Shown: piece after piece, positions 862 to 18,815 of the stretch
Layout of the letters: the number at the start of each line of letters is the position of its first letter
Numbering within the stretch: position 1 is the stretch's first letter
NCBI GenBank assembly: GCA_965200115.1
Contig: OZ241336.1
Location: forward strand, 748,059 to 812,058
Direction of reading: 5' to 3'
DNA from: an uncultured Rhodobacter sp.
GTDB taxonomy: Bacteria; Pseudomonadota; Alphaproteobacteria; Rhodobacterales; Rhodobacteraceae
Length of the DNA stretch: 64,000 bases
Position numbers and translations under genes: made by a program
Notes under the pieces: model-generated
Told to the model about the DNA's origin: nothing
The model's database searches: none
Seen by the model: only the letters and a program-made list of their open reading frames with translations

Positions 862-1839
862 ATGAAGAGACTACTTCTTGCCAGTTCCGCGCTCTGCCTG
901 GGCGCGGGAATGGCGGCGGCGCAGGACATGGAGATGTCCATGTCGTCCGTCACGGTCGGCGGCGACGGGCGCATGGGCGTCGTGTTCGACGACGACGAGA
1001 ACGCGAAATTCAGCAGCCGGGTGCGGGTCAGCTTCGCGCTGGCGGCGACGCTTGACGGCGGCATGACCGCCGGCGGCTCGATACGGGCCGACAACGCCCC
1101 GGGCGGCGCTGCCGGCACCGGGGGAAGCATCTTCCTTGAGGGACCGTTCGGCAAGCTGGCGATGGGCGACGTGGATCCGGGGGCGAAGGCCGCGCTCGGC
1201 AACGTGGACGCGGTCGGCTACAGCCTTCTGGACGAGCACAACAACCTCACCTACATCCGCGGCGGCGACCCGGACCCGACGCTGCTTTACACGCTGCCCA
1301 AGATGGGACCGGTGCAGGCGTACGCCTCCGTCAGCCAGGAGGCCATGGCCGACGGCGTGGAGACGGCCTACTCGCTGGACGAGACGGGAAAGCCCGTGCA
1401 GGCGGCCAAGACGAGGAACGAGGTCTCGTTCGACACGTTCTCGATCGGCGCGAAGGCCGACCTCTCGTTCGGCGACGTCGGCACCGCGTGGCTCGGCGCG
1501 GGCTTCGAGGGCGCGCCCGGCGACGGCGACGGCCACCTGATGGTCGGCGCGGGCGCGAGCGCCTCCGGCTTCACCGGCAAGCTGCTGGTCGGAACGCGGG
1601 ACGACAACAACCAGTACGCGGTCTCCGCGGGCTATTCCGCCGGGGTGATCGGCGCGACGGTCTTCTACGCCGACGACACGGAGATGGACGCCAAGGACAG
1701 CGCGGAGGCGCTCGGCGTCGGCCTTGAGTGGTCGATCGGCGGCGGCGCGGCGATCAAGGGCGGCGTCGTGAACAACATAGGCCAGAACGGGGCAGACGAC
1801 ACGCGCAAGGCCGACCTTGGCGTGACGTTCAGCTTCTGA
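862..1839 (+). CDS. Outer-membrane general porin (paralog 1)
   Basis: Internal ATG of ORF 763..1839, preceded by the GGAG RBS. Signal peptide MKRLLLASSALCLGAGMAAAQ. Gly/Asp-rich alternating beta pattern. C-terminal DLGVTFSF ending in Phe. Confidence 0.85.
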   Translation: MKRLLLASSALCLGAGMAAAQDMEMSMSSVTVGGDGRMGVVFDDDENAKFSSRVRVSFALAATLDGGMTAGGSIRADNAPGGAAGTGGSIFLEGPFGKLAMGDVDPGAKAALGNVDAVGYSLLDEHNNLTYIRGGDPDPTLLYTLPKMGPVQAYASVSQEAMADGVETAYSLDETGKPVQAAKTRNEVSFDTFSIGAKADLSFGDVGTAWLGAGFEGAPGDGDGHLMVGAGASASGFTGKLLVGTRDDNNQYAVSAGYSAGVIGATVFYADDTEMDAKDSAEALGVGLEWSIGGGAAIKGGVVNNIGQNGADDTRKADLGVTFSF

Positions 1840-1858
1840 GCAATTCAGGAAAGGAAAC

Positions 1859-3181
1859 ATGACGATGGAAAACAGACTTATACCCATCGCGCTGCTGGCG
1901 GGGGCGCTCGCGCTCGCGGGCTGCGGAGGCGGTGACGATTCCATGGAAGAGATGGAAGTGGATCCCCCGGTCGTTGAACCGGAACCCGAACCGGAGCCTG
2001 AACCGGAACCGGAACCCGAGCCTGAGCCTGAACCGGAAGTGAAAACTACGGACCTGCTTCCCAACGACGGAGTTCTGAGCGGTGGTCTAAGCGGAGCGAC
2101 CTTCACGGTTCCGAACGGAGGATATCTAAGGATCTCAGGCGTCTGGTATTCATGCACGGGTGGGGAGGCCTGCGTCGCATCCGTTCCCGCTGGCACGATC
2201 GTTAACAGAGTCTCCTATACCGGCGGAACGCTGGAAGTCTCTGCCACAGATCCCAGGCCAACGGACTCAAGTGCTGGAACCACGCCGCGGTCTGCCGAGT
2301 CAACAGACCCGTTGAGCAACGACGTTCTGGTCAAGGCGATAAGAGGCACTGGTAGGGTCGCCGCCGACAATACTGTTTGGAATTCAGGCACGGGTGCGGG
2401 AACCCGGATCACCGCAGATGGTTCGATGGTGGTTTTCACGCCCTTGGGAGGCGACAGAATCCATCTTCGGCTTGCCGCGAGCGGCGGAAGCAACGCCGCG
2501 TATTACGGGTATTGGGCGAAAAGCGGATCGGACATCACAGGCACTTCGCCCGCCGCCAGCTTGGCTGGAAGTACCGACCGCTCTGTCAGCGACGCCGGAA
2601 CCGTTTACGGCGGCGCGACGCCCTATGGAAAGAAGCCCGAAACTCGGCTCGGAACCGCTACGTATGACGGCACCGGAAATGTGCTGCTATACTTCAGCAC
2701 CGACGACTCGGACCATGACAACTGGAGACCTGGAGCGAGTCAAGCGGATCTCAATTTGACCGCCAATTTCACCAGCGGCAATGTCGGCGGAACGATCGAT
2801 ATCGATGATGAGCTCACCGGAATCACGAACCCAACGGGTTCCGGTGGCCAAATCGGCGCTGACAACGACATCCGTCTCGGGTCAACCCCGATAGGAATGG
2901 AAGGAACGTTCTCCGGAACGGATGTTACATTCGTCAATTCAAACGTCGACAGGGAGAACGGACGCTGGGAAGGCGGCTTCTTTGGCCAAACGACGCGAGT
3001 TGCCAATAACGTGCAAATGCACAACCATCCCGACAATGTCGCGGGCGAGTTCACAATCTCCAGACCGGAGATTCGCGCCAACACCCCTGACAGAACGTTG
3101 CTGCAGAACGAACTGCATATACGCGGGGCGTTCACGGGAGGGGCATGCATGACTGGCACTCCAGCGGCAGCCTGCCCCTGA
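1859..3181 (+). CDS. Long lipoprotein with (EP)n linker and TbpB/fHbp-like C-terminal beta-barrel domain
   Basis: Lipobox LALAGC followed by GGG. C-terminal motifs GTATYDGTG, ADLNLTANFTSGNVGGTIDID, WEGGFFGQ, VAGEFTI, IRGAFTGG. Starts 19 nt after the porin stop. Confidence 0.8.
   Translation: MTMENRLIPIALLAGALALAGCGGGDDSMEEMEVDPPVVEPEPEPEPEPEPEPEPEPEPEVKTTDLLPNDGVLSGGLSGATFTVPNGGYLRISGVWYSCTGGEACVASVPAGTIVNRVSYTGGTLEVSATDPRPTDSSAGTTPRSAESTDPLSNDVLVKAIRGTGRVAADNTVWNSGTGAGTRITADGSMVVFTPLGGDRIHLRLAASGGSNAAYYGYWAKSGSDITGTSPAASLAGSTDRSVSDAGTVYGGATPYGKKPETRLGTATYDGTGNVLLYFSTDDSDHDNWRPGASQADLNLTANFTSGNVGGTIDIDDELTGITNPTGSGGQIGADNDIRLGSTPIGMEGTFSGTDVTFVNSNVDRENGRWEGGFFGQTTRVANNVQMHNHPDNVAGEFTISRPEIRANTPDRTLLQNELHIRGAFTGGACMTGTPAAACP
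1976..2038 (+). repeat. Hexanucleotide (GAACCG-like) tandem repeat, about 10.5 units, encoding (Glu-Pro)n
   Basis: Direct reading of gaaccggaacccgaaccggagcctgaaccggaaccggaacccgagcctgagcctgaaccggaa. In frame within CDS 1859..3181. Confidence 0.9.
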
Positions 3182-3207
3182 TTCTCATGACCTAACCCAA
3201 GCCACGA

Positions 3208-3233
3208 CCCCCGGCGGCGCGTTTCGCCGGGGG
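3208..3233 (+). terminator. GC-rich hairpin after the long lipoprotein (CCCCCGGCG-8nt-CGCCGGGGG)
   Basis: Perfect 9-bp arms 27 nt after the stop. The same hairpin sequence recurs at 14068-14092. No clear U-tract here. Confidence 0.5.
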
Positions 3234-3336
3234 TAACTCCAAAGGGGCGAGAGCGATGCCCGCCCGGCGGCCATGGGTCCGGCGCGGCGGCACGCTCCGC
3301 CCGCAACCCTTTTCCAGAGAACATGAAGGTGGAACG

Positions 3337-4356
3337 ATGAAAGCGAATAATCCAGCGAAACGCATGGGAACGGCCATGGCCGCGCTCGCGGCAACCGCTG
3401 CGCTCACCGCCTGCGGCGGCGGCGGGGGCGGAACCCCGCCCGACCCGCAGCACTTCCAGGGCAAGAATGATAGCTTGGTGAACCGGATTTCGGGCGCGGC
3501 GACCTCTGAGGAGGCCATCGCCCTCACCGCGATGACCGTCGGGGTGGACTACGCCGACGGGGGAGCGACACTGGCGGACCCGGAGGAGATCAGCGTGAGG
3601 ATATTCCGCACCGCCCCGGACGCGGTGCCGACCGTCGAGCTGACGCGGGGCGACGACGTCAGGACGTTCGGCCCCGCCCACGCCTCCGGGAGGGACAACT
3701 ACCGCGTTCCCCCGTCGGGCGAGGGCGCTCAGGACAGAAGTAACCTGTGGACGTGGGCGGGTTATCCAATCGACCACGCTAACGGATGGTACGTCAGCAG
3801 CGACGGAGAGCGCAAATCGCAGAGACGGAAGCACCTCATTCCCATCGGCTTCTACCAGGACACCGAAACCGTTGACGTCGAGCGCCGCGCCGTCATCGGC
3901 CTGCGGACCCCGCCCGGCGGCATGCCGACGCACGACGTCACCGCGTCCTACGTGGGGGAGGTCCGGGTTGACACGTGGGCGGTCGGGGACGGCGGGGATC
4001 AACGCCGGTGGGACAGCGAGATTCTCCTTGAGGCCGACTTCGCCGGCGGCACGGTTTCCGGCACCCTGGACAGGTGGGAGCTACAGGATTTCGAACTGGA
4101 GGACGGCACTGTGGTCGACCTGCTGTATGAAGGCACCGCCTACCTGGTTCCGGAAACCCCGATCACCGGCAACGGCTTCAGCGGAAGTCTGGTCGCGGCC
4201 CCGGGCTGCGAGGACTGCTTCGAACTCACGTCCTCCGCCATTGAGGGCGGCTTCTACGGCCCCTACGCGGAGGAGGCCGGGGGAACGCTACAGGGCGGGT
4301 TCACCCTCGACGGCTCCGACCACGTCATGAACGGAATCTTCTACGCGAACCGCTGA
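3337..4356 (+). CDS. Short lipoprotein with TbpB/fHbp-like C-terminal beta-barrel domain
   Basis: Internal ATG of ORF 3256..4356 with a GAAGGTGGA RBS. Lipobox LTAC followed by GGGGGG. C-terminus EGGFYGPYAEEAGGTLQGGF...GIFYANR. Confidence 0.8.
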   Translation: MKANNPAKRMGTAMAALAATAALTACGGGGGGTPPDPQHFQGKNDSLVNRISGAATSEEAIALTAMTVGVDYADGGATLADPEEISVRIFRTAPDAVPTVELTRGDDVRTFGPAHASGRDNYRVPPSGEGAQDRSNLWTWAGYPIDHANGWYVSSDGERKSQRRKHLIPIGFYQDTETVDVERRAVIGLRTPPGGMPTHDVTASYVGEVRVDTWAVGDGGDQRRWDSEILLEADFAGGTVSGTLDRWELQDFELEDGTVVDLLYEGTAYLVPETPITGNGFSGSLVAAPGCEDCFELTSSAIEGGFYGPYAEEAGGTLQGGFTLDGSDHVMNGIFYANR

Positions 4357-4386
4357 CGGACCTTCGTTCCTGACGGACACGGAAAA

Positions 4387-4411
4387 CCCCGGCGACTTCC
4401 CGTCGCCGGGG
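4387..4411 (+). terminator. Intrinsic-type terminator hairpin (CCCCGGCGAC-5nt-GTCGCCGGGG, then CTTTC)
   Basis: Perfect 10-bp arms 30 nt after the stop at 4356. Confidence 0.6.
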
Positions 4412-4444
4412 CTTTCAAGTGCCCAGGCCACGATCTCCGGTCGA

Positions 4445-5117
4445 TCAGGGACGTTCCGCCCCGAACGCGCCGGCGACGCCTCCCCGCTCAAACACGCCAC
4501 CGGCCTCCCCGGCGTCGCGCCCGTGGAACCCGCCCCTGATGCAGTCGTCAGGGCGAAGCCTCTCCGAGAACCCGCCGCCGTCGATGGGCAGGCGTTCCCA
4601 GCGCATCGCCGCCCGCGCACGCGGAGTCAGGGTCACGTCGGCGAGCGGGGTCGGTGAGGTCGGCCACCGTGATCTCCGCTCCCCCGCGCACGGCGTGGCT
4701 GTCGCCGTCCGGGCCGACCATGTCCCCGCGCCAGTTTGCGGAACCCATCGCGGGCAGGCTGCCGGAATGAACGACGCCGCCAGCGGCCGCGCAGCGGGCG
4801 GTGATGCCGTCAACCCGGCCATAGACGGCGAACGCCGCCATGTCGCTCCAGTCACCCAGCGTGTTGCAAACCGTTCCCGACACGCCGTCGGCGTCATCCC
4901 CATCGATCTGGAAACCGACGGTCCGCCCGCAAACTGTCAGTTCGCGGGAACCGCCGGGGGTGCATGAGACGCTAGAAGCGCGCGCCGGCGGTCCGTTCGC
5001 GAGGCGGAAGCGCACGTCGCCGAGGGTTATGGAGCTAGCGTCAATGCCGGCGAGGAGAACTATGAGCGGGACGGCCGGCGCTCCCGTTCCGCGCGGGAAT
5101 TTCCCCAACGCTGCCAT
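4445..5117 (-). pseudogene. Decayed short TbpB-like lipoprotein (frameshifted, no lipobox)
   Basis: The N-part is in frame of ORF 4548..5117 (LGDWSDMAAFAVYG, ANWRGDMVG...GGAEITVADL). The C-part is in frame of ORF 4445..4903 (LADVTLTP...GGFHGRDAGEAGGVFERGGVAGAFGAERP). The frame switch lies near 4640-4680. The N-terminus lacks a Cys lipobox. Homologous to 14621..15556. Confidence 0.55.
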
Positions 5118-5176
5118 CGTCGGTCGCTCCCCGTGTCCGGTCGATCAAAGGGGGCGGCCCGTAGACCGCCCCCGAC

Positions 5177-5196
5177 GCGCCCGCCGGAACGGACGC
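5177..5196 (-). terminator. Conserved 3' hairpin after the long lipoprotein (8-bp stem, UCCG loop on the minus-strand RNA)
   Basis: The block 5159-5205 is near-identical to 16122-16168. The mismatches become G-U wobbles only on the minus (sense) strand. Confidence 0.45.
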
Positions 5197-5215
5197 GGTG
5201 TCTGTCGTTGGCCAT

Positions 5216-6607
5216 TCAGTCGTCGTCAAGTTCCGCGCCGAACGCGCCCGCGAGCCGCGAGTCGTCGTTGTGGACCTGGAACATGCCGCCCAGCGCCTTG
5301 GGGACGTCGGCTGAGCTGTCGGCGGTGTTAACCCCGCCATATCCGCGCACGAAATACCCGCCGTCATCGGCGATCTTATCGTCCCCGTCATGCCAGCTTA
5401 TGTTGCCGTCACCGGCGCCAAAGGGATTTGCGAGAGCGGCACCCGCGATGGCCTGTTCGTCGAGCTTGACTTCCCAGCCGGGCTTCGCCTTGCCGTCGAC
5501 CTGAAAGCCGTTGACCGTCCCGCTCACCATAGAATCCGTGTAGGTGTCCGAATCGAATTCGGCGGTCAGTTCAACGGAGGCCGTGAAGGCCCCGTGATCG
5601 CTTGAATCGTCGCTGTGGCTTGCGTACTGCCCTGCCGCGCCGCCCCTGTAGGTGGCCGTGTCCGCGGGTGAAGCGGTCCGGAGCGTATAGCCCTTTCCAG
5701 AGTCGTCGGTTCCGGGGCGGCCGTTTAGGTGTAGCGTGAAGTGCTCCAGATCCCCATCCTCGCTTTCCGTGATCCACCATCCGAACCGGAGGCTGTCGTC
5801 GGTAACGTCAGCGGTGATTTTGGCGTCCTTCCCGGCGCTTGGCGCGAAGTGCCATTGGCTTGCGATTAACGTAGTCGCTCCGGTGCTTCTGTTTTTGACC
5901 ACCGTGCAACCGTCTGGCAACACGCAGATGTACCGTCCCGACAGGCCGTAAAACTCGCCCGTCACGGAAGCGCCTACGGTGTGGGAGGTTCGGCCGTTGC
6001 CAAAGCCGGTTACTTTGTCACCGTCCGGAATCGCGTTGATGTTTATCCGATTGGTGTCGCCTCCGACCCAGACTCCGGCATAAAGGTCGGGCGCGTCACC
6101 GCCCGTATCCGCCGTGACGGGCTCTTCCTTCTCGGTCTTCCCGATGGCGAAGATCACGCCGCTTTGCGTTTCGGTACCAGCTTTTCCGCTGTACTCGTAA
6201 CCGTCTATGGTTCCGGCCTTCAGGGGATCGCCCTTGTCCGTCAGATTGCCAAACGAGGTTGACCCTGGATCCCGTATAACGCCGGCTCCTGCAGGCGCGC
6301 CATCAAAGATGTCACTGTCATCGGTGCCGGCACCGTCTTTCCCAAGGTTTCCGAGCGCGGCCACAAGCGCCTCGGCCCTCTTGGCCTTCGCCGTGTTCTT
6401 CGAGGCGTTTTCCTCGCCCTCCTTCACCCCGGCTTCCTTGATTTGATCGGCGGTCATGCACGAGCCGTTGTACTCAATTTCGCCTTCGTCGCAGCCCTCG
6501 CCGCCCGGATCCTTCTTCATAGGGCCGTCACTTCCCCCGCCGCAGCCGGCCAGGGCGAGCGCGCCCGCCAGCGCGAGCGCTGGCATCAATAGTCTGGATA
6601 TTCTCAT
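5216..6607 (-). CDS. Long lipoprotein with TbpB/fHbp-like C-terminal beta-barrel domain
   Basis: MRISRLLMPALALAGALALAGCGGGSDG lipobox. C-terminal ATYRGGAAGQYA, FTASVELTAEFD, SGTVNGFQVDG, LGGMFQV, LAGAFGAE. Confidence 0.85.
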   Translation of the reverse strand: MRISRLLMPALALAGALALAGCGGGSDGPMKKDPGGEGCDEGEIEYNGSCMTADQIKEAGVKEGEENASKNTAKAKRAEALVAALGNLGKDGAGTDDSDIFDGAPAGAGVIRDPGSTSFGNLTDKGDPLKAGTIDGYEYSGKAGTETQSGVIFAIGKTEKEEPVTADTGGDAPDLYAGVWVGGDTNRININAIPDGDKVTGFGNGRTSHTVGASVTGEFYGLSGRYICVLPDGCTVVKNRSTGATTLIASQWHFAPSAGKDAKITADVTDDSLRFGWWITESEDGDLEHFTLHLNGRPGTDDSGKGYTLRTASPADTATYRGGAAGQYASHSDDSSDHGAFTASVELTAEFDSDTYTDSMVSGTVNGFQVDGKAKPGWEVKLDEQAIAGAALANPFGAGDGNISWHDGDDKIADDGGYFVRGYGGVNTADSSADVPKALGGMFQVHNDDSRLAGAFGAELDDD

Positions 6608-6632
6608 ATCTGGTTTCCTTTTCCCGTATGGA

Positions 6633-7586
6633 TCAGAACGCGAACGTCACGCCGAGGTCGGCCCGGCGGTCGCTTTCAACGCCTTCCGCGTCAAAGCTCT
6701 CGGTGGTGATGCCGGCCTTGAGGGAGGCTCCGCCGCCCAGCCCGAAGCTGACGCCCGCGCCGAACGCCTCGCTGACGTCAGAATTGTCATTGAAGAAGAC
6801 GTTCGCGCCCATTCCTCCGGCCGAGTAGCCGAGGGAAACGCCGAAGCGCTCAACGTCCTCGCCCTCGTCCATGCCCTGGCTGCTGCCGACGATCTTGGCC
6901 GTGAAGCCGACGGCGGACACTCCCGCGCCGATCGCGAGCTGGCCGTCCTCGCCCTCGCTGACCGAGCTTTCGTAGCCCGCGGCGACCCAAGCCGTGCCTT
7001 CCCCGATGGTGAGGTCGGCCTTCGCGCCGAGCGCGGCCGTGTCGGCGGCGATCTCCTTCCCGTCCTCGTCGTCCGGGTCGTCATGCTGCCCGAGGGAAAC
7101 GTACGCCTGAACCATGCCCATCTTCGGCAGGGTGTACAGAAGCATCGGGTCCTCCGGATCCGTTCCCCGGATGTACGCGATTTCGTTCGGGTCCCCCAGG
7201 CCGGTGAAGCCCGCTCCGTCAACCTGACCGACCGCGGCCTTCGCGGCTGAGTCAAGCGACCCCATCGCGAGTTTCCCGAACGGACCGGAAAGGGCGATAT
7301 GCCCCTTCGTGCCTGAACTGGCTTTCACCGCTTCATGGGCCCAGAACTCGCCGGACATGGAAAGCCCGCTGTCCAGTTCCTTGGCGACCGAGACCTTCAG
7401 CCGAACGCGGCTGCTGAACCTGATTCCGTCCGGATTGTCCGCGCCGGAATTGTCGTGTGACGTGATCCCCATGCGGGCGTCACCGCTCAGGCTTATCGGC
7501 GACGCCATTTCCATCATGCCGTCCTGCGCGAACGCCACCCCGGCGCTCATTCCCAGCGCTGTGCTGGCAAGAAGTACTCTCTTCAT
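6633..7586 (-). CDS. Outer-membrane general porin (paralog 2)
   Basis: MKRVLLASTALGMSAGVAFAQ signal peptide. C-terminal DLGVTFAF. Conserved leader upstream. Confidence 0.85.
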   Translation of the reverse strand: MKRVLLASTALGMSAGVAFAQDGMMEMASPISLSGDARMGITSHDNSGADNPDGIRFSSRVRLKVSVAKELDSGLSMSGEFWAHEAVKASSGTKGHIALSGPFGKLAMGSLDSAAKAAVGQVDGAGFTGLGDPNEIAYIRGTDPEDPMLLYTLPKMGMVQAYVSLGQHDDPDDEDGKEIAADTAALGAKADLTIGEGTAWVAAGYESSVSEGEDGQLAIGAGVSAVGFTAKIVGSSQGMDEGEDVERFGVSLGYSAGGMGANVFFNDNSDVSEAFGAGVSFGLGGGASLKAGITTESFDAEGVESDRRADLGVTFAF

Positions 7587-7853
7587 AACGTTTCTCCTAC
7601 TGTTGCGTTGTGACCTTCTCCGCGGGCCGGGACGCCATGCGTCCGCCCCCGCGAATCGGTCTCCGGGCGCGGGCGGGACGGGTCATAATCCGCGATTACG
7701 CGCTTTCGGGAAAAACGTTATGTATCAGTCACATGGACGTTCCCTGACCGCGCCGGAGCCGGCGGGGCCGCCCGCTCCGGCGCCGGCGGACCCGCCATCC
7801 GGCGCGGTCCGGGCGGGACAGATCGACACGTCTGCCCGACCGCCGCTTTCGGG
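7587..7853 (-). promoter_or_regulatory. Conserved porin upstream module, copy 2 (palindrome at 7686-7698)
   Basis: Reverse complement aligns base-for-base with copies 1, 3 and 4, including the distal block CCGAAAGCGGCGG..GTGTCGATCTGTCCCGCC. Confidence 0.6.
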
Positions 7854-7989
7854 GGCGGGCGGCCAGCCCGCGTTGGTGGCTTTGGCTTCCCCCTCGCAGC
7901 GCGGGATCTCCCGGCGGACGCTCGAACGTCAGTGCGGGACCGATGCGGCGCACCCCGGCGCCATCCTCGCCGTTCCCGGCCGGGCGGCG

Positions 7990-8160
7990 AGCGCCGTGAT
8001 CTGCTCGGAAAACCGAGGCGGACTGCACCAGCCGGTCGAGATCGCCCGTCTTCCGGAGATGGCCGAGGCGGCCTAGCGTGTCAGTGGCGCGCTGGCGGAC
8101 TTTCTTGCCGTCGCGGCGGTTACCGACGATCTGGAGGTAAGTGTTGGACCCACTGGCCTT
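7990..8160 (-). pseudogene. N-terminal fragment of an IS1634/IS4-family transposase
   Basis: Within ORF 7729..8226: SNTYLQIVGNRRDGKKVRQRATDTLGRLGHLRKTGDLDRLVQS. This resembles the Y-L-Q-x-V...GKVRQR...LGRL N-terminus of that family as I recall it. No DDE domain follows. Confidence 0.45.
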
Positions 8161-8401
8161 GGTGGCACAGCATGGGTTTCTCCATAAGGACACCACATAT
8201 CCCGCGCCCGTTCTACGCCAATGCAAACCCCGGTGCCGACTATACCGATATTCCTACCCCATTCGTGGCGCTACATATTTTGCTGCCCGACCAGCACCAG
8301 CCCGTGCCAAAGTCACGAAATGCATGGGAATCATCAAACGCCAATCGCGAAATCGGCGACCAAACTGTCGAAGATGAGCCAGACATAGGGCGCGGGATGT
8401 T

Positions 8402-10115: not shown

Positions 10116-10116
10116 G

Positions 10117-10812: not shown

Positions 10813-11204
10813 GGATTGCCTCCGTATCTGCCGTCAGCGTGTGCATCCCGCGGTCAAGTTGTCAACAAGTCAGGGTGTGCCGGTGAAATCCGGGGGCGCC
10901 ATCAACGGTTCCCGGGAGCCAACAAACAGGCATTCGATTTCTGGCTAGCCCTTAAGGAAAGCCGACTTCAAACACTCCACGACTTTCTTCCCGCTTCCTG
11001 ATCTCCGCAACATCCTGCCCGATAGCGTTATCCCCCGTCCTCTTCATTCCCTAGGCTTTCCCCGAAAGCGGCGTTCGGACCCGTCTTCCCCAATCGCATT
11101 GGTACCGCAGAGTTTCAACCCCGTATCCGTCCATGCGCTGTCACGCCCTCTCATCGGGCCCGGTTTTCCTGCCCACCGCCGATACGGCCCGCCGCCTCGA
11201 CGCA

Positions 11205-11428
11205 TTTCCGTGTCGATCTGTCCCGCCGGAGCCGCGCCGGATGGCGGCCCCCCTGGCTCCGGCGCGGGCGGGGAACGTCCATCTACCTGATACATAACGT
11301 TTTTCCCGAAAGCGCGTAATCGCGGATTATGACCCGTCCCACGCGCGCCCGGAGACCGATTCGCGGGGCGTTGGCGAGGCGCCACGGCCCGCGGGGGAGG
11401 TCCCAACGCAACAGTAGGAGAAAACGCT
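11205..11428 (+). promoter_or_regulatory. Conserved porin upstream module, copy 3 (palindrome 11317-11329; leader stem 11362-11393)
   Basis: Same block as copies 1, 2 and 4. The distal motif CCCGAAAGCGGCG reappears at about 11058, separated by an insertion of about 140 bp. Confidence 0.6.
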
Positions 11429-12652
11429 ATGAAGAGAGTACTTCTGGCCAGTACCGCGCTCTGCCTGGGCGCGGGAACGGCGGTCGCCCAGGACATGGGC
11501 ATGGACGGGCCGTCGCTCGCCCTGAGCGGCTTCGCCGAGATGGGCGTCGCCGGGTCCAAGGACGACGAGGCGCGGTTCCACACGGACATCGACGTGACGT
11601 TCAAGGCCACCGGCGTGACGGACGCCGGGGTCATGTGGAGCGCGGACGTCGACCTTGACGAGGGCGGGGCCGGCGCGCCCGCCGTCGCCGACGACGAGGA
11701 CGACGGCGGCGCGACGGTCTCGATCAGCCAGCCGGCGGGCTTCGGCACCATCACGATGGGAGACACGGCGGGCACGATCGCGTGGGCGGTCTCCGACGCG
11801 CGGGGCGCGGGTCCGGCGTCCATCCGCGACAACCACGAGCACGGCGGCTCCAGCGGCAACGACGGGCTGGACGCGCGGCACGACAACCAGATCCTGCGCT
11901 GGAACCGCGCCATAGGCTCCGGCTTCAGCATGGCCGCCTCCATCGAGATAGACGACGACGCGGACGGAACGCCGAACACCAACACCTTCGACCCGATCCT
12001 CGGCGTCGGCGGCACGTATTCCATGGGAATGGGCGTCGGCACCCTGGGCCTCGGCGCGGGCTTCCAGATGGGCAGCTACGACCACGAGATCAAGGCGCCG
12101 CAGGTGAACTCGGCCCGCATGGCGGGAACGGAGAACGCCGCGACGTCCATCTGGAACAAGGAAGAGGTTGACGCCACCGCGTTCGGCGCGAGCGTCTCGC
12201 TCGACTTCGCCAACGGCGGCGACGGGATCAAGGTGATCGGCGACGCGGGCATCCTGGAGGCCGACGGCAGCCGCCTCGCCGGCACTCCCAGCGTCGTCAC
12301 GCACGTCGCCGACGTGCAGATGACGCACCTTGGCCTTGGCCTCGGCTACACGGTCGGCGCGATCTCGATCGGCGTGAACGTCGGAACGAAGAACCACGAG
12401 GAAATGGTCGACTCGACGCCCGCCGTCGCCGGCGGCGTCACCAAGGTCGAGACGACCGTCAACGGCGTCGGCTTCAGCGCGGCCTACAAGCTGGGCGGAG
12501 GCGCGGAGCTGCAGTTCGGCGTCGGAAGCCACGAGACCGAGTACGACTGGACGGTTGACGGCGACGCCACCCTCTCGGGGGGGACCGCCGCCGGCTACGA
12601 CCATTCCACCGACACGAACTCATGGTCGCTCGGCCTGAAGTTCGCGTTCTGA
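11429..12652 (+). CDS. Outer-membrane general porin (paralog 3)
   Basis: MKRVLLASTALCLGAGTAVAQ signal peptide. C-terminal SWSLGLKFAF. Confidence 0.85.
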   Translation: MKRVLLASTALCLGAGTAVAQDMGMDGPSLALSGFAEMGVAGSKDDEARFHTDIDVTFKATGVTDAGVMWSADVDLDEGGAGAPAVADDEDDGGATVSISQPAGFGTITMGDTAGTIAWAVSDARGAGPASIRDNHEHGGSSGNDGLDARHDNQILRWNRAIGSGFSMAASIEIDDDADGTPNTNTFDPILGVGGTYSMGMGVGTLGLGAGFQMGSYDHEIKAPQVNSARMAGTENAATSIWNKEEVDATAFGASVSLDFANGGDGIKVIGDAGILEADGSRLAGTPSVVTHVADVQMTHLGLGLGYTVGAISIGVNVGTKNHEEMVDSTPAVAGGVTKVETTVNGVGFSAAYKLGGGAELQFGVGSHETEYDWTVDGDATLSGGTAAGYDHSTDTNSWSLGLKFAF

Positions 12653-12677: not shown

Positions 12678-14024
12678 ATGAGAATATCCAAATTCATGCT
12701 ACCGGCGGTTATGGTGGCGGGTGCGCTCGCCCTGGCCGGCTGCGGCGGGGGGAGCTCGACTCCGGCCAGCGATCCCGGCGGAAACGACGACGGCGAGGAA
12801 GGCGACATGATGCCACCTGCAAACAATAATGGTGGCTTCTCGGAAGTTATAGTCAGCGGAGGGTTCACCTATGCTGATCGAGTTCAGGGCGAAAACGGTT
12901 CGATCAAAGCCGGGGAAAAAGTGTACCTTGGCGAGGTAGGAACCGGAGCCGTGATCTCTTGCCCGGATACCGCGACAAATGGCTGCCGTTGGAGGTACGA
13001 AAACGGACAACTATACGCGACCGGCGGAGCGATGGGCGATCCCTGGGAAACTCCGGCTGCGCCGAAAGTAGGTGGAGCCACGGCAACCAGCGGCGAAACC
13101 AACCTGAACTGGCTGTCGCAGGATGCGCTTGTCAACGCCATACGGCCGGATAGGTCAGTCGAACTTCAGAGAAGAGCGGCCGGAAGGACCGTGCGGCACT
13201 CATTGGGAGGCGCAGGCACACAATGGGTAGCGCCAGCGCGTGGCGTAGACGGCGATACCGCGACCGCCAACACTTTTGAACGAGAGCTCACGATTGACGA
13301 GACCGAGGATCCAACCGCCGACGCACTCGAAGGCCTCGACACCAACATAAGGCTGGTCCACACCCGCGGTCGGACCGCCAGCGGTACTCCTCTTATACAA
13401 GACGCCGACAGGCCCGATGACTATCTCGTTTACGGCACGTGGGAAACGACCGCCCGCTCCGGACTTGATCCAAAGGGATATCCGAAAGCCGATGTCATGT
13501 GGGCGGGAAGCATTCCCTACACTCAGAGGCTGCGCTTCAGCACCGGCACCGCGAGGTATACTGGCACCGCTTTGGGCCACTATAGAAACAACAACAGTGG
13601 CGCTCCCGGCGGTGCATGGACTGAATGGGAAGGAAACGTGCGGCTGGACGCGGATTTCGCGACAGACAGAGTTGAGGGTATGGTATGGACCGGCATTGCA
13701 GATAGCATAACCGGTGCGGATCGTCCTAATCTCGGAACGATTAACCTGAGAATAACCGATCTCGTAGAAAACGTTGATGGAACCGCGAAGATCGCTGGCA
13801 GCACCGGCGGCGGATCGTGGCAGGCGAACTTCTACGGTACGCGGGCGATCCAAGGACAGCCAAGTGGCGTAGCGGGTGGGTTCAAGGCCGATAGACCCTT
13901 CACCATCGTTCTAGGCGGCGATGACGGAACTACCTATGTAAGCGGGCACTCCGGGGCTACGGTCCAGGGCGCGTTCGGCGCTCACAATACGGGGTGCGTC
14001 CCCGGGGGAACCTGCACGGAGTAG
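12678..14024 (+). CDS. Long lipoprotein with TbpB/fHbp-like C-terminal beta-barrel domain
   Basis: MRISKFMLPAVMVAGALALAGCGGGSS lipobox. C-terminal ARYTGTALGHY, VRLDADFATDRVEG, WQANFYG, GVAGGF, VQGAFGA. Confidence 0.85.
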   Translation: MRISKFMLPAVMVAGALALAGCGGGSSTPASDPGGNDDGEEGDMMPPANNNGGFSEVIVSGGFTYADRVQGENGSIKAGEKVYLGEVGTGAVISCPDTATNGCRWRYENGQLYATGGAMGDPWETPAAPKVGGATATSGETNLNWLSQDALVNAIRPDRSVELQRRAAGRTVRHSLGGAGTQWVAPARGVDGDTATANTFERELTIDETEDPTADALEGLDTNIRLVHTRGRTASGTPLIQDADRPDDYLVYGTWETTARSGLDPKGYPKADVMWAGSIPYTQRLRFSTGTARYTGTALGHYRNNNSGAPGGAWTEWEGNVRLDADFATDRVEGMVWTGIADSITGADRPNLGTINLRITDLVENVDGTAKIAGSTGGGSWQANFYGTRAIQGQPSGVAGGFKADRPFTIVLGGDDGTTYVSGHSGATVQGAFGAHNTGCVPGGTCTE

Positions 14025-14067
14025 CGAAAGTTAACGAACGTCCTTAACAAACCAACCCAAATCACGA

Positions 14068-14092
14068 CCCCCGGCGGCGCGTTCGCCGGGGG
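14068..14092 (+). terminator. Terminator hairpin CCCCCGGCG-7nt-CGCCGGGGG followed by TTTCC
   Basis: Same arms as the hairpin at 3208-3233. It lies 44 nt after the stop at 14024. Confidence 0.6.
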
Positions 14093-14540: not shown

Positions 14541-14620
14541 AGACGGACGGGACGTTCTTCACCCGGTGGGATGCCGCGGAGCGCCCGCGGAGGAGGATCT
14601 GGCCAGGCCGGCGGCGGACG

Positions 14621-15556
14621 TCAGTCGGATATGCCCCGCCTGGCCCCGAACGCGCCCACGATGTTTTGCTGCTCGAAGATCCCGGCGGTCTCCGCGTGGG
14701 CCGGCCCCGCGAAGCCGCCCTGTATGCGGTTTCCGGCCCCGCGGCCCGCCGCATAGGTTCCGTCGGCCGCGACGGGAACGTTTAGGAAACGCACTTCGGA
14801 AACCGGGTGCGGCGCGTTGCGGTCGAGATCCACGATGCCGGTGAAGTCCGCGGCCAGCGTCTGGTTTCCGAAACGGTAGTTCAGCTCCGCGTCGCCCTGC
14901 AAAACGTTTCCGCGCCGGTCGCCGCGGGCCGGCGTTCCGACCATCAGCCCGCGCCATTTCGCGCTAGCCGCGGGCCGCGATCCCGTGAGGTCGCTGCCGG
15001 CGGCGGCGACACGGACGGTCAGGGTCACGCCACCGTCCGGCGTCTCGATCGCCCCAAAGCCGTCTTCCACCTGGAACGCGCCGTGATCCAGCCAGCCTCC
15101 GTAGGAACGGCCATTGAAACCGCCGGAACGGCCCCGCGTCTCGATCAGGGTGACGCCGTTCTTCGTCAGGACGGCCCGCGAGCGCCCGGTTCCCGGATCG
15201 GCGGTCCGGAGATCCTCAAGCGTGATCGTGTCCGAGAAACCGCTTTGGGGTTCCGTGAGCGTACAGCGCGTTCCCCGGCAATTCGTGGCGGTGATAAAGT
15301 CCTCTCCCTCGATTTCCGCGTAATAGGTCGAGGCGACGAGCGAATCGATCCGGTCGGATATCGCGGCCGACCGCGCGGTCTGGCCGGCGACCGTCTCCCC
15401 GGGTGGCGCGGATCCCGTCAGGACGCGGGCGCGGTCCGGGGAGAAAGACCCGGGCGACGGTCCGTCCGGTCCACCGCCGCCGCAGGCCGCGAGAAAGGCG
15501 AGTCCGGCGGCGGCCAGGGCCTTCGCTCCGTACCGGGTTTCGGTCGGGTAGTTCAT
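14621..15556 (-). CDS. Short lipoprotein with TbpB/fHbp-like C-terminal beta-barrel domain
   Basis: Internal ATG (MNYPTETRYGAKALAAAGLAFLAACGGGG). C-terminal AKWRGLMVG, GDAELNYRF, LAADFTG, IQGGFAGPAHAETAGIF, VGAFGARR. Confidence 0.8.
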   Translation of the reverse strand: MNYPTETRYGAKALAAAGLAFLAACGGGGPDGPSPGSFSPDRARVLTGSAPPGETVAGQTARSAAISDRIDSLVASTYYAEIEGEDFITATNCRGTRCTLTEPQSGFSDTITLEDLRTADPGTGRSRAVLTKNGVTLIETRGRSGGFNGRSYGGWLDHGAFQVEDGFGAIETPDGGVTLTVRVAAAGSDLTGSRPAASAKWRGLMVGTPARGDRRGNVLQGDAELNYRFGNQTLAADFTGIVDLDRNAPHPVSEVRFLNVPVAADGTYAAGRGAGNRIQGGFAGPAHAETAGIFEQQNIVGAFGARRGISD

Positions 15557-15895
15557 GGTTCGGTTTCCTTCGCTTCGTGAACCGGCGGCGGGAGCGTATC
15601 CCGCCCCGAGACGGCGGGGCAACCCCCCGCGCCGCTGGCGGGCGCGCCCTGTCCCTTCGTCGGGAAATGCCCTAGACCGCCCTCGCGGGGCGGCGCTGGC
15701 TGATGCGGTTGTTTCCCGCTTCCCCTCAATCCCGCCGCTCCCGCCATGACGCCAGCGAGGCCGCCGCGCCTCCCGGCCGCGGGAACCGCCCGTGCGTGCG
15801 CGATGCCGGTTTTCGGGGGGTGTTGGGGCGTCCGAAGCGCGGAAGCCGCTCCAGGGGCCTTTCAGCGGGCCGTGCCGGGCGGCCCATAGGTTCCG

Positions 15896-16077
15896 TCAGG
15901 CGTCTTCCGCCGCGTGTTTCAGGATGTCCGCGCGGATCACGTTCCGCAGCATTTCCCCCCCTTCCATCCCCAGACGACTATCGCCTGGCCCTTGGCGTCG
16001 ATACTATTCACGGTCATTTGCGGCCCGCCGGACTTCAGTTTCACCACGTCACCGGCCTTGATCGGTTGGTCCGCCAT
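15896..16077 (-). pseudogene. Small DUF2158-like gene interrupted at a C7/G7 homopolymer
   Basis: My own translation gives MADQPIKAGDVVKLKSGGPQMTVNSIDAKGQAIVVWGWKGG, then a stop at 15937. One extra G in the run at 15955-15961 would restore ...EMLRNVIRADILKHAAEDA, ending at 15896. The span is 182 nt, not a multiple of 3. Confidence 0.5.
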
Positions 16078-16139
16078 CGTTCGCTTCCTTTCGCGTGCGG
16101 GGGTAAGAGGGCAAGGGCGATCCGTAGACCGCCCCCGAC

Positions 16140-16159
16140 GCGCCCGCCGGAGCGGACGC
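16140..16159 (-). terminator. Conserved 3' hairpin after the long lipoprotein (GCGUCCGC-UCCG-GCGGGCGC on the minus-strand RNA)
   Basis: The block 16122-16168 matches 5159-5205. Confidence 0.45.
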
Positions 16160-16181
16160 GGTGTCTGTTTTGGACAAGAGA

Positions 16182-17717
16182 TCAGTTGGCCGGATCCTCG
16201 TCAGCCCCGAACGCACCCCTCATCCTATGGGTGTTTTCGTATCTCGCCTCAAAGTGGCCCGCCACGGATTCCGGAAGGTTCGGCCTGTCAAGCGTGTTCT
16301 CTTGATAGAGGCCGCCATGCCAGTAACCGTTGGGATCGTCTTTTTCCGTCCCGATGGTCCATGTCGTTTCGGAACGGATGAGTGGTGAAGCATTCTCATC
16401 ACTGCCCGGCTTTATGAAACTGCCGTCAGTGTGTATGCTGGCTTTCATAAGACCGACTTTCCAGTTCTTTGACTGTCCGTCAGCCATGAAGCCTTCAAGC
16501 GTTCCCTCTATCGTTCCGCCTTCATTATTCGCACCGAAATCAGCCGTCAGGGTCGCGGTCGCGGTGAAGTCGCCCGCCTCGTTGTCGGCATTTCCGCTTC
16601 CACGGCTGATAGCGTACTGCCCCGCGGCACCGCCCTTGTAGGTGGCCTTTCCGACTAGTTGCACGGCGGTTGGATTAGTATTTTCATCAGTCCCAGTGTC
16701 GCTCACTACATTTGCGCCTGTCGGGTCAACGAAGTTGGCTAGGTTCCCCCAATCATCACTGGAATCTTCTTCAGGCCGTTCCGTCCAGTAGCCAAAGCGG
16801 ATGAACGAACCGTCTTCCGTCATCGCCATAGCGTTTCTGGCCGGAATGAACCGCCAATCGCCGCCAGCGGGCCTTCCATTCAACGAAGTACAGGCTTGGT
16901 CGAAGTTACAGGCAAAGGTACCTTGCGCGCCGTCCAGCGTACCGGCAACGGTTGCGGTATGCGTTACGTTGCGATTTCCGGTCGGGAAGCCCGTGATTTT
17001 TAGCGTTCCGAAATTGTCGTCAAGAACATGGGCGGGAACGCCAGCAACAGCGGCTACAATGTTATCCGCGTGCTTCGTTGCGAAAGGCGTTGCCGTAGGA
17101 GCGGCCTGGTTGTGGTAGATGACGGCGCGGTGCCTGTCGTCATCGTCGTCCTTGGCGTATTCCGCCCCCTTCCAGCCGGTGATGGCGCGAACGACAGCGT
17201 TCGTCTTTTCAAGAGTGACAGTGTTGCCGTCAGTGCCCCCTGAATCTGTACCATTGTAATCGAGGGTCCCTGTCACTTTGTCAGCGGTATCGAAATCAAG
17301 GGATCCGACTGAGGCCCTGTCGTTTCGAAGGGCGCTCCATGTCCGTTCCAGTTCGAGTGCCGCTGCGGCTGCGTCAGCGTCGGTCGTGTCGGGATAGCAT
17401 ACGCCGTCGCGCTCCACAGTACCTGTACCGCAGGTGCGCGGGTTTTCGGGCGTCGTTATGACGAAGCCCGCCGTCCTGAGCTGCGCCGGGGTCTCCTGGA
17501 CCTCGCCGTCAGCATCACGCGTATATTCGCACCCGTCATCTGCATCGCAGGTGTACCGGTTGGTGTCGTCGCCAAAGTACGCGCCTTTCACGAGCTTTAT
17601 TGTTACGGGATCCGGGTCGGTATCCACCGCCGGGCCGTCACTCCCCCCGCCGCAACCGGCCAGGGCGAGAGCGCCCGCCAGCGTGACGGCGGGCATCAAT
17701 AGTCTGGATATTCTCAT
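16182..17717 (-). CDS. Long lipoprotein with TbpB/fHbp-like C-terminal beta-barrel domain
   Basis: MRISRLLMPAVTLAGALALAGCGGGSDG lipobox. C-terminal ATYKGGAAGQYA, FTATATLTADFG, IEGTLEGF, VAGHFEA, MRGAFGAD. Confidence 0.85.
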   Translation of the reverse strand: MRISRLLMPAVTLAGALALAGCGGGSDGPAVDTDPDPVTIKLVKGAYFGDDTNRYTCDADDGCEYTRDADGEVQETPAQLRTAGFVITTPENPRTCGTGTVERDGVCYPDTTDADAAAAALELERTWSALRNDRASVGSLDFDTADKVTGTLDYNGTDSGGTDGNTVTLEKTNAVVRAITGWKGAEYAKDDDDDRHRAVIYHNQAAPTATPFATKHADNIVAAVAGVPAHVLDDNFGTLKITGFPTGNRNVTHTATVAGTLDGAQGTFACNFDQACTSLNGRPAGGDWRFIPARNAMAMTEDGSFIRFGYWTERPEEDSSDDWGNLANFVDPTGANVVSDTGTDENTNPTAVQLVGKATYKGGAAGQYAISRGSGNADNEAGDFTATATLTADFGANNEGGTIEGTLEGFMADGQSKNWKVGLMKASIHTDGSFIKPGSDENASPLIRSETTWTIGTEKDDPNGYWHGGLYQENTLDRPNLPESVAGHFEARYENTHRMRGAFGADEDPAN

Positions 17718-17744
17718 ATCTGGTTTTCCTTTCGTGTCCGGGGA

Positions 17745-18815
17745 TCAGAAGCTGAACGCGACGCCGAGCGACCACCTGTTGGTGTCGGTGTCCCGAGAAT
17801 CCTCGTCCTCGATCTCCGGCCAGTCGGTCTCCGCGGTGCTCGCGCCGAACTTCAGCGACGCGCCGCCGCCCAGGTCGTAGTTGACCGCCATTCCGATGCC
17901 GGTGGTGTCGCGGTCGTCACTCTCGCCCAGCGCGTCGGTTTCCTGGCTTCCCATGTTGACGCTCAGGGAGACCGGACCCGCCGCGTAGCCGATGCCGAGG
18001 CCGGCGAAGTTCACCGTCCGCTCGAAATTCTCCGCGTCCACGCTGTCCTCGTGGTGCTCCCGGACGTAATTGCCGATCAGGGTGATCCCGTAGGTGGTCG
18101 TCACGTCCACGCTCGCGCCGACCGCGGTCATGTCGTTCGCGACGACCGCGCCGTCACGCATAACGGGATCGCCGTCGGCGTCCAGGACGGCCTCCCTGCC
18201 CATCTGGTAGCCGACGCCGGCCCCGACGGTGTTGCCGCCCATGTCCATCGAGTACTTTCCGCCGAGGCCGACGATCGCCTCGCCGTCGCCGCCCTTGCCG
18301 CCGATCTCGTCGTCCAGCTCCAGGGAGCCGGCGAAGCCGAAGCCGCTGAACGAGTAGTCGTAACGGAGGATCTGGTGGCCTTCGTGCTTTGCGTCAAGTC
18401 CGGCGTTGTCCATGCGGCCCGGGCTGCGGTGCTCGTCGCCGATGGATCCGGCGAGGCCGTCGTCGGTCTCCCGGAGCGCGTAGTCGAGCGCGCCGTCGGT
18501 GTCGCCGAGCGTCAGGCTGCCGAACGGCCCCTTCAGGTGGACGGCGATGCCGCCGGACTCGTCCCTGCTTGAACTGTCGCCGTCGGCCAGCTCGACCGTG
18601 GTGCCGAACTCGACCCCGCCGTCGGTGGCGCCGGACATGACGAACTCAAGCCCTATGTCGGTGTGGAACCGGGCGCTGCCGTCCTTGTCGCCGGCGATCC
18701 CCATCTCCGCCGCGCCCTTGAGCTTGATCGGCGGCTCCGCCATGGCCATGTCCTGCGCCGCCGCCATTCCCGCGCCCAGGCAGAGCGCCGTGGTCGCCAT
18801 CAGTATTCTCTTCAT
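17745..18815 (-). CDS. Outer-membrane general porin (paralog 4)
   Basis: MKRILMATTALCLGAGMAAAQ signal peptide. C-terminal RWSLGVAFSF. Confidence 0.85.
   Translation of the reverse strand: MKRILMATTALCLGAGMAAAQDMAMAEPPIKLKGAAEMGIAGDKDGSARFHTDIGLEFVMSGATDGGVEFGTTVELADGDSSSRDESGGIAVHLKGPFGSLTLGDTDGALDYALRETDDGLAGSIGDEHRSPGRMDNAGLDAKHEGHQILRYDYSFSGFGFAGSLELDDEIGGKGGDGEAIVGLGGKYSMDMGGNTVGAGVGYQMGREAVLDADGDPVMRDGAVVANDMTAVGASVDVTTTYGITLIGNYVREHHEDSVDAENFERTVNFAGLGIGYAAGPVSLSVNMGSQETDALGESDDRDTTGIGMAVNYDLGGGASLKFGASTAETDWPEIEDEDSRDTDTNRWSLGVAFSF

Follow-up and report, generated by a model that had tools for sequence, protein, structure and literature searches.

Four divergent porin-lipoprotein cassettes in an uncultured Rhodobacter sp. 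and their possible role as a bipartite, recombining surface module

We describe four divergent cassettes in a 64,000-nucleotide (nt) stretch of the genome of an uncultured Rhodobacter sp. (contig OZ241336.1), each made of a general porin gene followed by a long lipoprotein gene, at porin-lipoprotein gaps of 19, 25, 25, and 27 nt. This whole stretch is called the window, and coordinates are window positions unless a locus (L001 and the like) is named. The arrangement is not due to chance, since 15 further cassettes at nine other loci show the same order, and the porin and lipoprotein modules have been swapped at conserved handles. We propose, as an interpretation to which we give somewhat less than an even chance, that each cassette encodes a bipartite surface module, i.e., a coexpressed, hypervariable porin and a TbpB-like lipoprotein that would work as a pair. 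We rank this interpretation first, followed by uncoupled antigens that covary, by the porin as an assembly or export partner of the lipoprotein, and by a periplasmic orientation of the lipoproteins.

RESULTS

Anatomy of the cassettes

The genes of the four cassettes and the shorter lipoprotein genes beside them are as follows (aa, amino acids; GC3, G+C content at third codon positions).

862..1839, + strand: por1, type-A general porin, 325 aa; Porin_4 E 6e-22
1859..3181, + strand: lip1, long lipoprotein, 440 aa, X family; (EP)n linker; LAGC-GGG; GC3 0.64
3337..4356, + strand: slip1, short lipoprotein, 339 aa; TbpB_B_D 31.5 bits; 88% identical to L004 11370-12386
4445..5117, - strand: decayed small barrel gene, frameshifted, two overlapping open reading frames (ORFs)
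5216..6607, - strand: lip2, long lipoprotein, 463 aa, Y family; lipobox; 29% identical to lip4
6633..7586, - strand: por2, type-A porin, 317 aa; Porin_4 E 1e-25
11429..12652, + strand: por3, type-B porin, 407 aa; Porin_4 E 3e-25; GC3 0.93
12678..14024, + strand: lip3, long lipoprotein, 448 aa, X family; TbpB_B_D 23.1 bits
14621..15556, - strand: slip3, short lipoprotein, 311 aa, downstream of lip4; LAAC-GGGG; weak TbpB_B_D and slam_lipo matches
16182..17717, - strand: lip4, long lipoprotein, 511 aa, Y family; lipobox; aligns with the Y family and the barrel motifs
17745..18815, - strand: por4, type-B porin, 356 aa; Porin_4 E 5e-34

The first-pass annotation had predicted the four porin genes on these strands, a lipoprotein of 440-511 aa 19-27 nt after each of them, and two short lipoproteins plus a decayed one at 3337-4356, 14621-15556, and 4445-5117. 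Every ORF was found as placed, the long lipoproteins having 440, 463, 448, and 511 aa. All four porins match the Pfam family Porin_4 over the whole profile (E 6e-22 to 5e-34), and all have a signal peptide of the form MKR..A-x-A and F as the last residue. They are assigned to this family of general diffusion porins and are predicted to form channels. The Rhodobacter capsulatus porin 2POR is matched by por1 over its full length (E 2.5e-21), and por4 has no direct sequence match among the Protein Data Bank (PDB) sequences. Pairwise porin identity in the window is 26-46% (por1 versus por2, 46%; por3 versus por4, 37%).

The 19- to 27-nt spacers contain a ribosome-binding site (RBS) and no terminator, and GC-rich hairpins lie 3' of each long lipoprotein gene. 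Because of these features, the operon appears to consist of the porin and long lipoprotein genes, with the short lipoprotein genes (slip1 probably) as separate transcription units. The GC3 is 0.83-0.93 in the porin genes, 0.63-0.74 in the long lipoprotein genes, and 0.75-0.91 in housekeeping genes; the lower value of the lipoprotein genes could reflect a foreign origin, homologues being present on a 54% GC, probably gammaproteobacterial contig, or a relaxed codon selection.

Conservation of the pairing at other loci

Cassette loci were found via lipoprotein homology, and cassette-type homologues on readable contigs were counted. A porin gene lies directly before the lipoprotein gene in 19/19 cassettes at 10 loci, the window included, with gaps of 19-29 nt and lipoboxes throughout (IS, insertion sequence; MAG, metagenome-assembled genome).

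Window: 4 cassettes
L001: 1 cassette, with an IS inserted between porin and lipoprotein
L002: 2 cassettes
L003: 2 cassettes, with Porin_1-type porins
L004: 3 cassettes
L005: 1 cassette, in a Paracoccaceae MAG
L009: 2 cassettes
L011: 2 cassettes, one lipoprotein truncated by a transposase
L012: 1 cassette
L014: 1 cassette

The porin had been suggested to be the invariant partner of the lipoprotein, with conservation outside the source genome as a check. The 15 cassettes at the nine other loci agree with both points, and the porin is the neighbor even where it is of the Porin_1 type, on a contig of ~54% GC. This contig (L003; 53.7% GC) carries its cassettes at 3005-5549 and 8946-11329, next to LpoB, DUF1425, and IAT_beta genes, and encodes porins with matches to Porin_1 as well as Porin_4 and with an N-terminus of beta/gammaproteobacterial style; judged from these genes, it probably belongs to a gammaproteobacterium. 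Since the L003 porins are of a different family, the pairing is kept across porin families, which favors a real functional link. Distant homologues in large genomes (L006 and L007) are solitary.

Other searches yielded little. A scan of the GTDB genomes with the lipoprotein alignment was dominated by the signal-peptide pattern and returned one locus only (L005). Nothing was found in JGI metagenome scans, either with a C-terminal alignment or with the invariant upstream DNA pattern, and tblastn of lip3 against a plasmid collection gave no match. In addition, NCBI MAGs labelled Thiotrichales and Rhodobacter sp. have proteins of this lipoprotein family in one 90%-identity cluster, which could be due to horizontal transfer or to a binning error.

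Cassette swapping at conserved handles

Contigs with flanks that are 96-97% identical as DNA (flanking proteins ~99%) bear different porin and lipoprotein alleles. Between L002 and the window, a DNA identity of 96% extends over 18746-25000, starting inside the por4 signal peptide, and the flanking proteins are 99.1-99.8% identical; where the window has por4, L002 encodes a porin with an identity of 36% to por4 (over the N-terminal ~115 aa) and of 67% to por1, and the lipoprotein at the lip4 position resembles lip4 only in the signal peptide. The L002 counterparts of por3 and lip3 are 64-66% identical to them. Between L004 and the window, 97% identity covers a three-gene insert located between por2 and por3 (7521-11214). 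Beside this insert, L004 has a por1-like cassette that corresponds to 658-1962 at 90% and, after an unrelated lipoprotein body, to 3199-4396 (slip1) at 91%, an alignment indicating that the lipoprotein alone was swapped between the 90% porin block and the 91% slip1 block. The L004 arrangement is also compatible with an inversion between upstream regions 1 and 2, which is therefore suggested; the left flank of the window (1-600) has no counterpart in L004.

Cassettes are thus swapped at conserved handles, of which we distinguish three because the identity breakpoints with L002 and L004 fall on them: handle 1 would comprise the upstream region and the porin signal peptide; handle 2, the spacer with the porin C-terminus before it and the lipoprotein signal peptide after it; and handle 3, the 3' flank. 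The corresponding elements of the window are as follows.

658..861, + strand: shared upstream region of cassette 1, putative promoter and 5' untranslated region; 88-91% identical to the other three copies
7587..7852, - strand: shared upstream region of cassette 2, inverted relative to cassettes 1 and 3; repeat families D1, D6, I2, I4
11209..11428, + strand: shared upstream region of cassette 3, from the repeat comparison
18816..19081, - strand: shared upstream region of cassette 4, from the repeat comparison
1816..1962, + strand: handle 2 of cassette 1, porin C-terminal strand, 19-nt spacer with RBS, lipoprotein signal peptide and lipobox
17632..17768, - strand: handle 2 of cassette 4; cassette-2 counterpart at 6522-6656, 91% identical between the two (D4)
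5152..5205, - strand: handle 3 after lip2, conserved 3' flank with a hairpin at 5152-5173; 94% identical to 16115-16168
16115..16168, - strand: handle 3 after lip4, conserved 3' flank and hairpin
3208..3233, + strand: hairpin after lip1, GC-rich, terminator-like; same hairpin after lip3
14068..14092, + strand: hairpin after lip3, GC-rich

The ~200-260 nt upstream of the four porin genes are 88-95% identical, compared with 26-46% for the porins themselves. They include a 53-nt core (722-774) that is identical before por1, por2, and por3 and has 1 mismatch before por4, with 0 matches expected by chance, and they contain the palindrome TAATCGCGGATTA. The same region precedes the L002 and L004 porins (five copies, 85-90% identity; L004_a keeps only the last ~113 nt), and ~50 nt form a block without any variation across nine copies on three contigs. 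Inverted repeats (126-225 nt, 79-94% complementarity) are present between all oppositely oriented cassettes. Handle 2 of cassette 1, which ends the 90% block common with L004 (658-1962), is 88% identical to L002 5288-5404; that of cassette 4 is 78-86% identical to handles in L002 and L004, and the N-termini of lip2 and lip4 are 91% identical as DNA.

A structured RNA (riboswitch or leader) was considered for the upstream region and rejected, as there was no Rfam match at the gathering score (one chance-level match, E 0.095), the RNAalifold covariation term was 0.01, and folding was no better than in shuffled sequences (folding-energy z-score of -0.39). The conservation is better explained by a promoter or regulatory function together with recombination. 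A scan for consensus promoters and terminators found none in the upstream regions, with no more sites than in shuffles, such a consensus being uninformative for an alphaproteobacterium.

The modules assort freely, as porin types A (por1, por2) and B (por3, por4) occur with lipoprotein types X (lip1, lip3) and Y (lip2, lip4) in all four combinations. Porin differences cluster in indel-rich segments between conserved blocks, and the mature parts of the lipoproteins are extremely variable behind conserved signal peptides. With a synonymous divergence (dS) of 0.15-0.63 and a nonsynonymous-to-synonymous ratio (dN/dS) of 0.35-0.49, the cassette genes lie far above the flanking genes (dS 0.02-0.11; dN/dS 0.03-0.06), which indicates that the cassette alleles are older than the strains and less constrained. 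The diversification of the four copies that had been suggested from the window is strongly supported by these values and by the different alleles between near-identical flanks.

Such data would also be expected if porin and lipoprotein were not coupled, either physically or functionally, and were the two most exposed antigens or phage receptors of one coregulated, recombination-prone locus, varying together. Both modules are hypervariable, with old alleles (high dS) and a raised dN/dS, they reassort independently, the cassettes lie amid IS elements and transposase-like genes, and neisserial relatives such as fHbp and NHBA act without a transporter partner (PMC7857515). We nevertheless consider this explanation unlikely, since the strict porin-then-lipoprotein order with gaps of 19-29 nt in 19/19 cassettes, found also with a different porin family and probably in a different class, exceeds what mere co-location would need. 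Moreover, the short lipoproteins vary less and are not joined to the operon.

The lipoproteins and the TbpB-like barrel

All six intact lipoproteins of the window have the lipobox L-[AT]-[AG]-C followed by GGG, as do 15 lipoproteins of the other loci, and the tethers that follow the lipobox Cys are Gly-rich, acidic, or (EP)n. A lipobox Cys with a poly-Gly linker had been ascribed to every lipoprotein, and this is true of the six intact ones and not of the decayed copy at 4445-5117, which has no lipobox. The two ORFs of this copy jointly match an intact 196-aa gene of L005 (9473-10063), itself a weak TbpB_B_D match. The ordered barrel motifs, likewise ascribed to all, are visible in alignment A3 (A-x-Y-x-G, L-x-A-[DN]-F, I-x-G, G-x-W..F-Y-G, A-G-x-F, and G-A-F-G-A) and are only approximate in lip1, slip1, and slip3.

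The Pfam profile TbpB_B_D (PF01298; gathering score of 26) is passed by slip1 only (31.5 bits); lip3 reaches 23.1 bits, lip1, lip2, and slip3 reach 14-18 bits (slip3, 18), and lip4 has no Pfam match. The proposed check with the two Pfam models thus succeeded for the four porins and slip1, and left the other lipoproteins below the gathering score or unmatched. The NCBIfam model slam_lipo (cutoff of 80) gave 19-28 bits in 5/6 intact lipoproteins (lip4, 20.5) and no match in lip2. A family profile built on the C-terminal ~200 residues of 22 members, including all six intact lipoproteins of the window, matched LbpB (9.6e-6) and TbpB (1e-4) among the PDB sequences.

Structure prediction gave a TbpB-like model for lip3 (AF2; pLDDT 71.5, pTM 0.66), for which Foldseek returned LbpB (2.7e-7), the TbpB C-lobe, the NHBA C-domain (TM 0.70), and HphA. 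The lip2 model is of low confidence (pLDDT 48), although its eight C-terminal strands reach pLDDT 60-86, and the best matches by fold are again of the TbpB type, namely HpuA (5.9e-4), TbpB, NHBA, and fHbp. The predicted kinship with the barrel family of neisserial surface lipoproteins is hence borne out by profile and fold matches, and the structural check answered clearly for lip3 and less so for lip2. An X-family barrel hidden Markov model (HMM) detects lip3, lip1 (E 1.8e-24), and slip1, and does not detect lip2, lip4, or slip3; the Y-family profile (A6) has no match among the PDB sequences. Since these two profiles gave nothing for them, the barrel of the Y family and slip3 is read from weak matches, the motif alignment, and the low-confidence lip2 model. 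Altogether, a C-terminal barrel of the TbpB/LbpB type is well supported in lip3, lip1, and slip1, weakly in lip2 and slip3, and barely in lip4.

A word-indexed search returned few homologues of lip3 (58, nearly all metagenomic, with a few MAG proteins labelled Rhodobacter sp. or Thiotrichales bacterium). The wider family of lipoprotein barrels is not tiny, as an exhaustive profile search returned 2974 representatives at E <= 0.001 (111 at E <= 1e-30), many of which are proteins of 1000-1800 aa with a C-terminal barrel. Among these giant relatives, P0127, P0136, P0149, P0182, P0191, and others have up to 18 matched stretches and the barrel at the end. Just downstream of the L005 cassette, a 478-aa protein (8040-9476) combines N-terminal ankyrin repeats with a C-terminal barrel (weak TbpB_B_D match), a fusion which suggests that the barrel can carry host-directed passengers. 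A phage origin, or a phage-like fold of the lipoproteins, was rejected, as a BFVD search gave no match at E <= 0.001.

On which side of the outer membrane the lipoproteins lie is a question to which these relatives speak. Most Gram-negative lipoproteins are periplasmic, and lipoprotein-porin complexes on the periplasmic or membrane side are known, e.g., MlaA-OmpC/F; as no translocon gene was seen nearby, the lipoproteins could have their anchor in the inner leaflet and act on the porin from beneath, modulating it or holding it in place (e.g., by gating or by a peptidoglycan link). We find such an orientation quite improbable, since the structural relatives among the fold matches (TbpB, LbpB, HpuA, NHBA, fHbp, and HphA) are all surface exposed or secreted (PMC7857515), since variable mature parts behind conserved signal peptides are typical of exposed proteins, and since the barrel relative in L005 is fused to ankyrin repeats, likely a host-directed passenger.

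Slam and TonB-dependent receptors

The window had been described as devoid of Slam and of TonB-dependent receptors, and a search of every window ORF of at least 330 aa agrees, with no Slam (DUF560, PF04575) and no TonB-dependent receptor domain. Nor was Slam found at the nine other cassette loci, where the genes called up to 7-10 kb away were searched (the L005 flanks being checked only partly), and no TonB-dependent receptor was found among the called genes in the fetched flanks of these loci. That Slam is not involved, as had been implied, is not concludable from 64 kb. In Aquicoccus sp. SCR17 (L008 5860-8191), a 314-aa TbpB_B_D lipoprotein is directly followed by Slam (TPR plus PF04575, 126 bits), and the barrel of this lipoprotein shares 33% identity with the slip1 barrel (E 1e-13). 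Slam systems therefore exist in Rhodobacterales, and because this slip1 homologue sits beside Slam, a porin acting in place of Slam is a conjecture. With the Aquicoccus Slam as the query, a word-based search, and hence a weak negative, found 25 homologues (one in a Gemmobacter MAG) and none on the cassette contigs or on the 4.2-Mb contig of P0020.

Since no Slam lies near the cassettes and Slam is adjacent to the lipoprotein in Aquicoccus, the porin stays a candidate for an assembly or export partner, serving biogenesis and not transport. Either the beta-barrel assembly machinery (BAM) would fold the porin around the N-terminal tether, as for RcsF, or the porin would substitute for Slam. In addition to the lack of Slam in the window, within 7-10 kb of any of the 10 loci, and on the contigs covered by the weak word-based search, the tight gene spacing and the Gly-rich, acidic, or (EP)n tethers after the Cys agree with it, free reassortment fits a nonspecific threading, and the complexes of RcsF with outer membrane proteins made by BAM are an established precedent (PMC7857515; PMC9907809). 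We give this route little credence, however, because neither RcsF nor Slam has homology to the cassette proteins, the lumen of general porins is constricted, and the short lipoproteins appear outside the porin operons. Moreover, a distant Slam may be present elsewhere in the genome, as the searches covered the window and flanks, and the slip1 family does adjoin Slam elsewhere (Aquicoccus).

Genes and elements around the cassettes

Between the divergent por2 and por3 cassettes lies the three-gene insert (7853-11208, GC 0.59), flanked by inverted upstream regions and 97% identical in L004. Its ORFs (8402-9607, 9471-10334, and 10117-10812, all on the - strand) encode one protein of metallo-beta-lactamase fold and two proteins without a family match. 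The former has weak PADLOC matches (LmuA and RTasMBL) in its N-terminal part only, and the insert may be a small defense or mobile module.

An IS200-like Y1 transposase ORF, possibly RAYT-like (18926-19552, - strand), lies directly upstream of the upstream region of cassette 4, and Y1_Tnp genes are also found beside cassettes in L002 (10214-10678) and L009 (9968-10198). Genes of the Uma2 family recur beside cassettes in L002, L004, L009, and L011. Upstream of cassette 1, an 81-nt segment (398-478) is 95% identical to a segment just downstream of a lipoprotein gene in L009 (8352-8431) and L010; it could mark another conserved boundary of the cassettes or represent a repeat element. The cassette region is bordered by an AAA-ATPase_like plus PDDEXK_9 protein (19654-21249, - strand), which is 99.8% identical in L002 and of which a 73% identical copy borders the cassette region of L004. 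Farther away (58830-62347, + strand), an envelope gene pair encodes, in this order, a 408-aa protein without a family match and a 758-aa protein whose OmpA domain is C-terminal.

Ankyrin repeats are enriched in sponge symbionts. In view of the ankyrin-barrel fusion of L005 and of the metagenome tag ROBB21-1_SAMN13943197 in the name of one cassette-locus contig, the habitat is probably a marine sponge.

DISCUSSION

We propose the following mechanism for the bipartite surface module. A two-gene operon, expressed from the common upstream region, would coproduce a general diffusion porin and a lipoprotein resembling one lobe of TbpB, with a lipid anchor, a tether that is Gly-rich or acidic, an N-terminal part that varies, and a C-terminal barrel of eight strands. 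The two proteins would operate together on the outside of the outer membrane, where the lipoprotein on its tether would bind an external ligand, or cover the porin, beside a TonB-independent channel. The receptor operons tbpBA, lbpBA, and hpuAB would hence have a counterpart based on a porin. At the three handles, homologous recombination could exchange each of the two modules, porin and lipoprotein, without the other, which would result in four very different versions per genome and in different ones in near-identical strains, and the likely driver would be frequency-dependent selection by phages, grazers, or an animal host. The operon-like anatomy, the homology, the conserved adjacency, and the swapping of cassettes are shown by the data; for these organisms, which are uncultured, we infer function, topology, pairing, ligand, and selective agent alike.

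Several points weigh against this proposal. The outward orientation of the lipoproteins and their contact with the porin are hypothetical; the barrel assignment is weak for lip2, slip3, and lip4; and the 19/19 count comes from a narrow sample, as the loci were found through the lipoprotein and mostly in three metagenome assemblies. A general porin needs no capture protein, passive diffusion supplies no energy to release a tightly bound ligand, and no ligand can be proposed. Finally, porin and lipoprotein types reassort freely, which speaks against a specific contact surface formed by the variable parts, so that any contact must use the conserved ones, i.e., the tether, the barrel, and the porin core. 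A more specific claim is that these TbpB-type lipoproteins depend on the porin of their operon, and not on Slam or a TonB-dependent transporter, either as a route or anchor to the surface or as a TonB-independent capture-and-channel receptor; this is possible, if rather doubtful.

The closest comparison is with tbpBA, lbpBA, and hpuAB of Neisseria and Pasteurellaceae, which also encode, in one operon, an outer membrane beta-barrel protein and a lipoprotein composed of a Cys-Gly-rich tether, an N-terminal part that varies, and a TbpB_B_D-type barrel of eight strands, both partners being highly variable between strains. The partner here is, however, a general porin of the 16-strand type (Porin_4, 2POR-like; Porin_1 in L003), whereas theirs is a 22-strand TonB-dependent transporter. 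Furthermore, the barrel gene comes first in our cassettes, the lipoprotein has one lobe instead of two, no Slam lies nearby, and the hosts are uncultured marine bacteria, probably symbionts, in contrast to mammalian pathogens. The lipoproteins share their C-terminal barrel family with the cargo of Slam (type XI) systems, i.e., TbpB_B_D lipoproteins and hemophilin-like proteins exported by DUF560 proteins, as well as the combination of a variable N-terminal passenger with this barrel, including the ankyrin-barrel fusion of L005; the 33% identity of the slip1 barrel to the Aquicoccus lipoprotein directly before Slam illustrates this, yet no DUF560 gene was found in the window or beside any of the 19 cassettes.

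Two other systems offer more distant parallels, along with the source family of the porins. RcsF, with OmpA, OmpC, and OmpF, is a lipoprotein that has a flexible linker at its N-terminus and associates with abundant porins, and it is a precedent for porin-dependent topology (PMC7857515; PMC9907809), although it has no sequence or fold relation to our lipoproteins and rcsF is not encoded with a porin, so that this is an analogy only. As for the porins, the R. capsulatus protein (2POR/3POR) is a relative by the full-length alignment of por1 (E 2.5e-21) and the Porin_4 match of all four; here, unlike there, a lipoprotein gene invariably comes after that of the porin, and the porin has four very divergent versions. 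The sap locus of Campylobacter fetus and the variable surface antigen loci of Neisseria consist of divergent cassettes in both orientations, with a conserved 5' region as the recombination substrate and alleles that differ between close strains. The window cassettes share the divergence, both orientations, the conserved 5' regions, and the allelic differences between close strains. Unlike in sap, all four keep the whole upstream region up to the start codon and an intact ORF, and could thus all be expressed, and no single movable promoter is evident in the window.

In the literature that we searched, we found no description of an operon of a porin and a TbpB-like lipoprotein, of fourfold divergent copies behind one upstream region, or of their cassette-style exchange, in line with the view of the first-pass annotation that such a module was undescribed. 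Taken singly, the porins belong to Porin_4 and are ordinary, and the lipoproteins add new members to the TbpB_B_D superfamily; what appears to be new is a module of surface lipoprotein and outer membrane barrel with a porin in place of the TonB-dependent transporter.

To our knowledge, the TbpB/fHbp family of surface lipoproteins has been described almost exclusively in animal pathogens, in which its members depend on Slam and have TonB-dependent transporters as partners. An obligate pairing with ordinary porins in one operon would give the family a further setting, spanning two porin families, probably two proteobacterial classes, and uncultured marine, probably sponge-associated bacteria, and it makes testable how such lipoproteins reach and function at the surface without a nearby Slam gene. 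If true, a porin-dependent display or a capture-and-channel receptor would be a new two-component module of the outer membrane, packaged as recombining cassettes, and the route or anchor version would represent a Slam-independent, RcsF-like assembly path for a whole lipoprotein family. The cassettes also provide a clean natural example of modular surface variation and may, therefore, constitute a candidate locus for studying the pressure of phages and hosts on the envelopes of symbionts.

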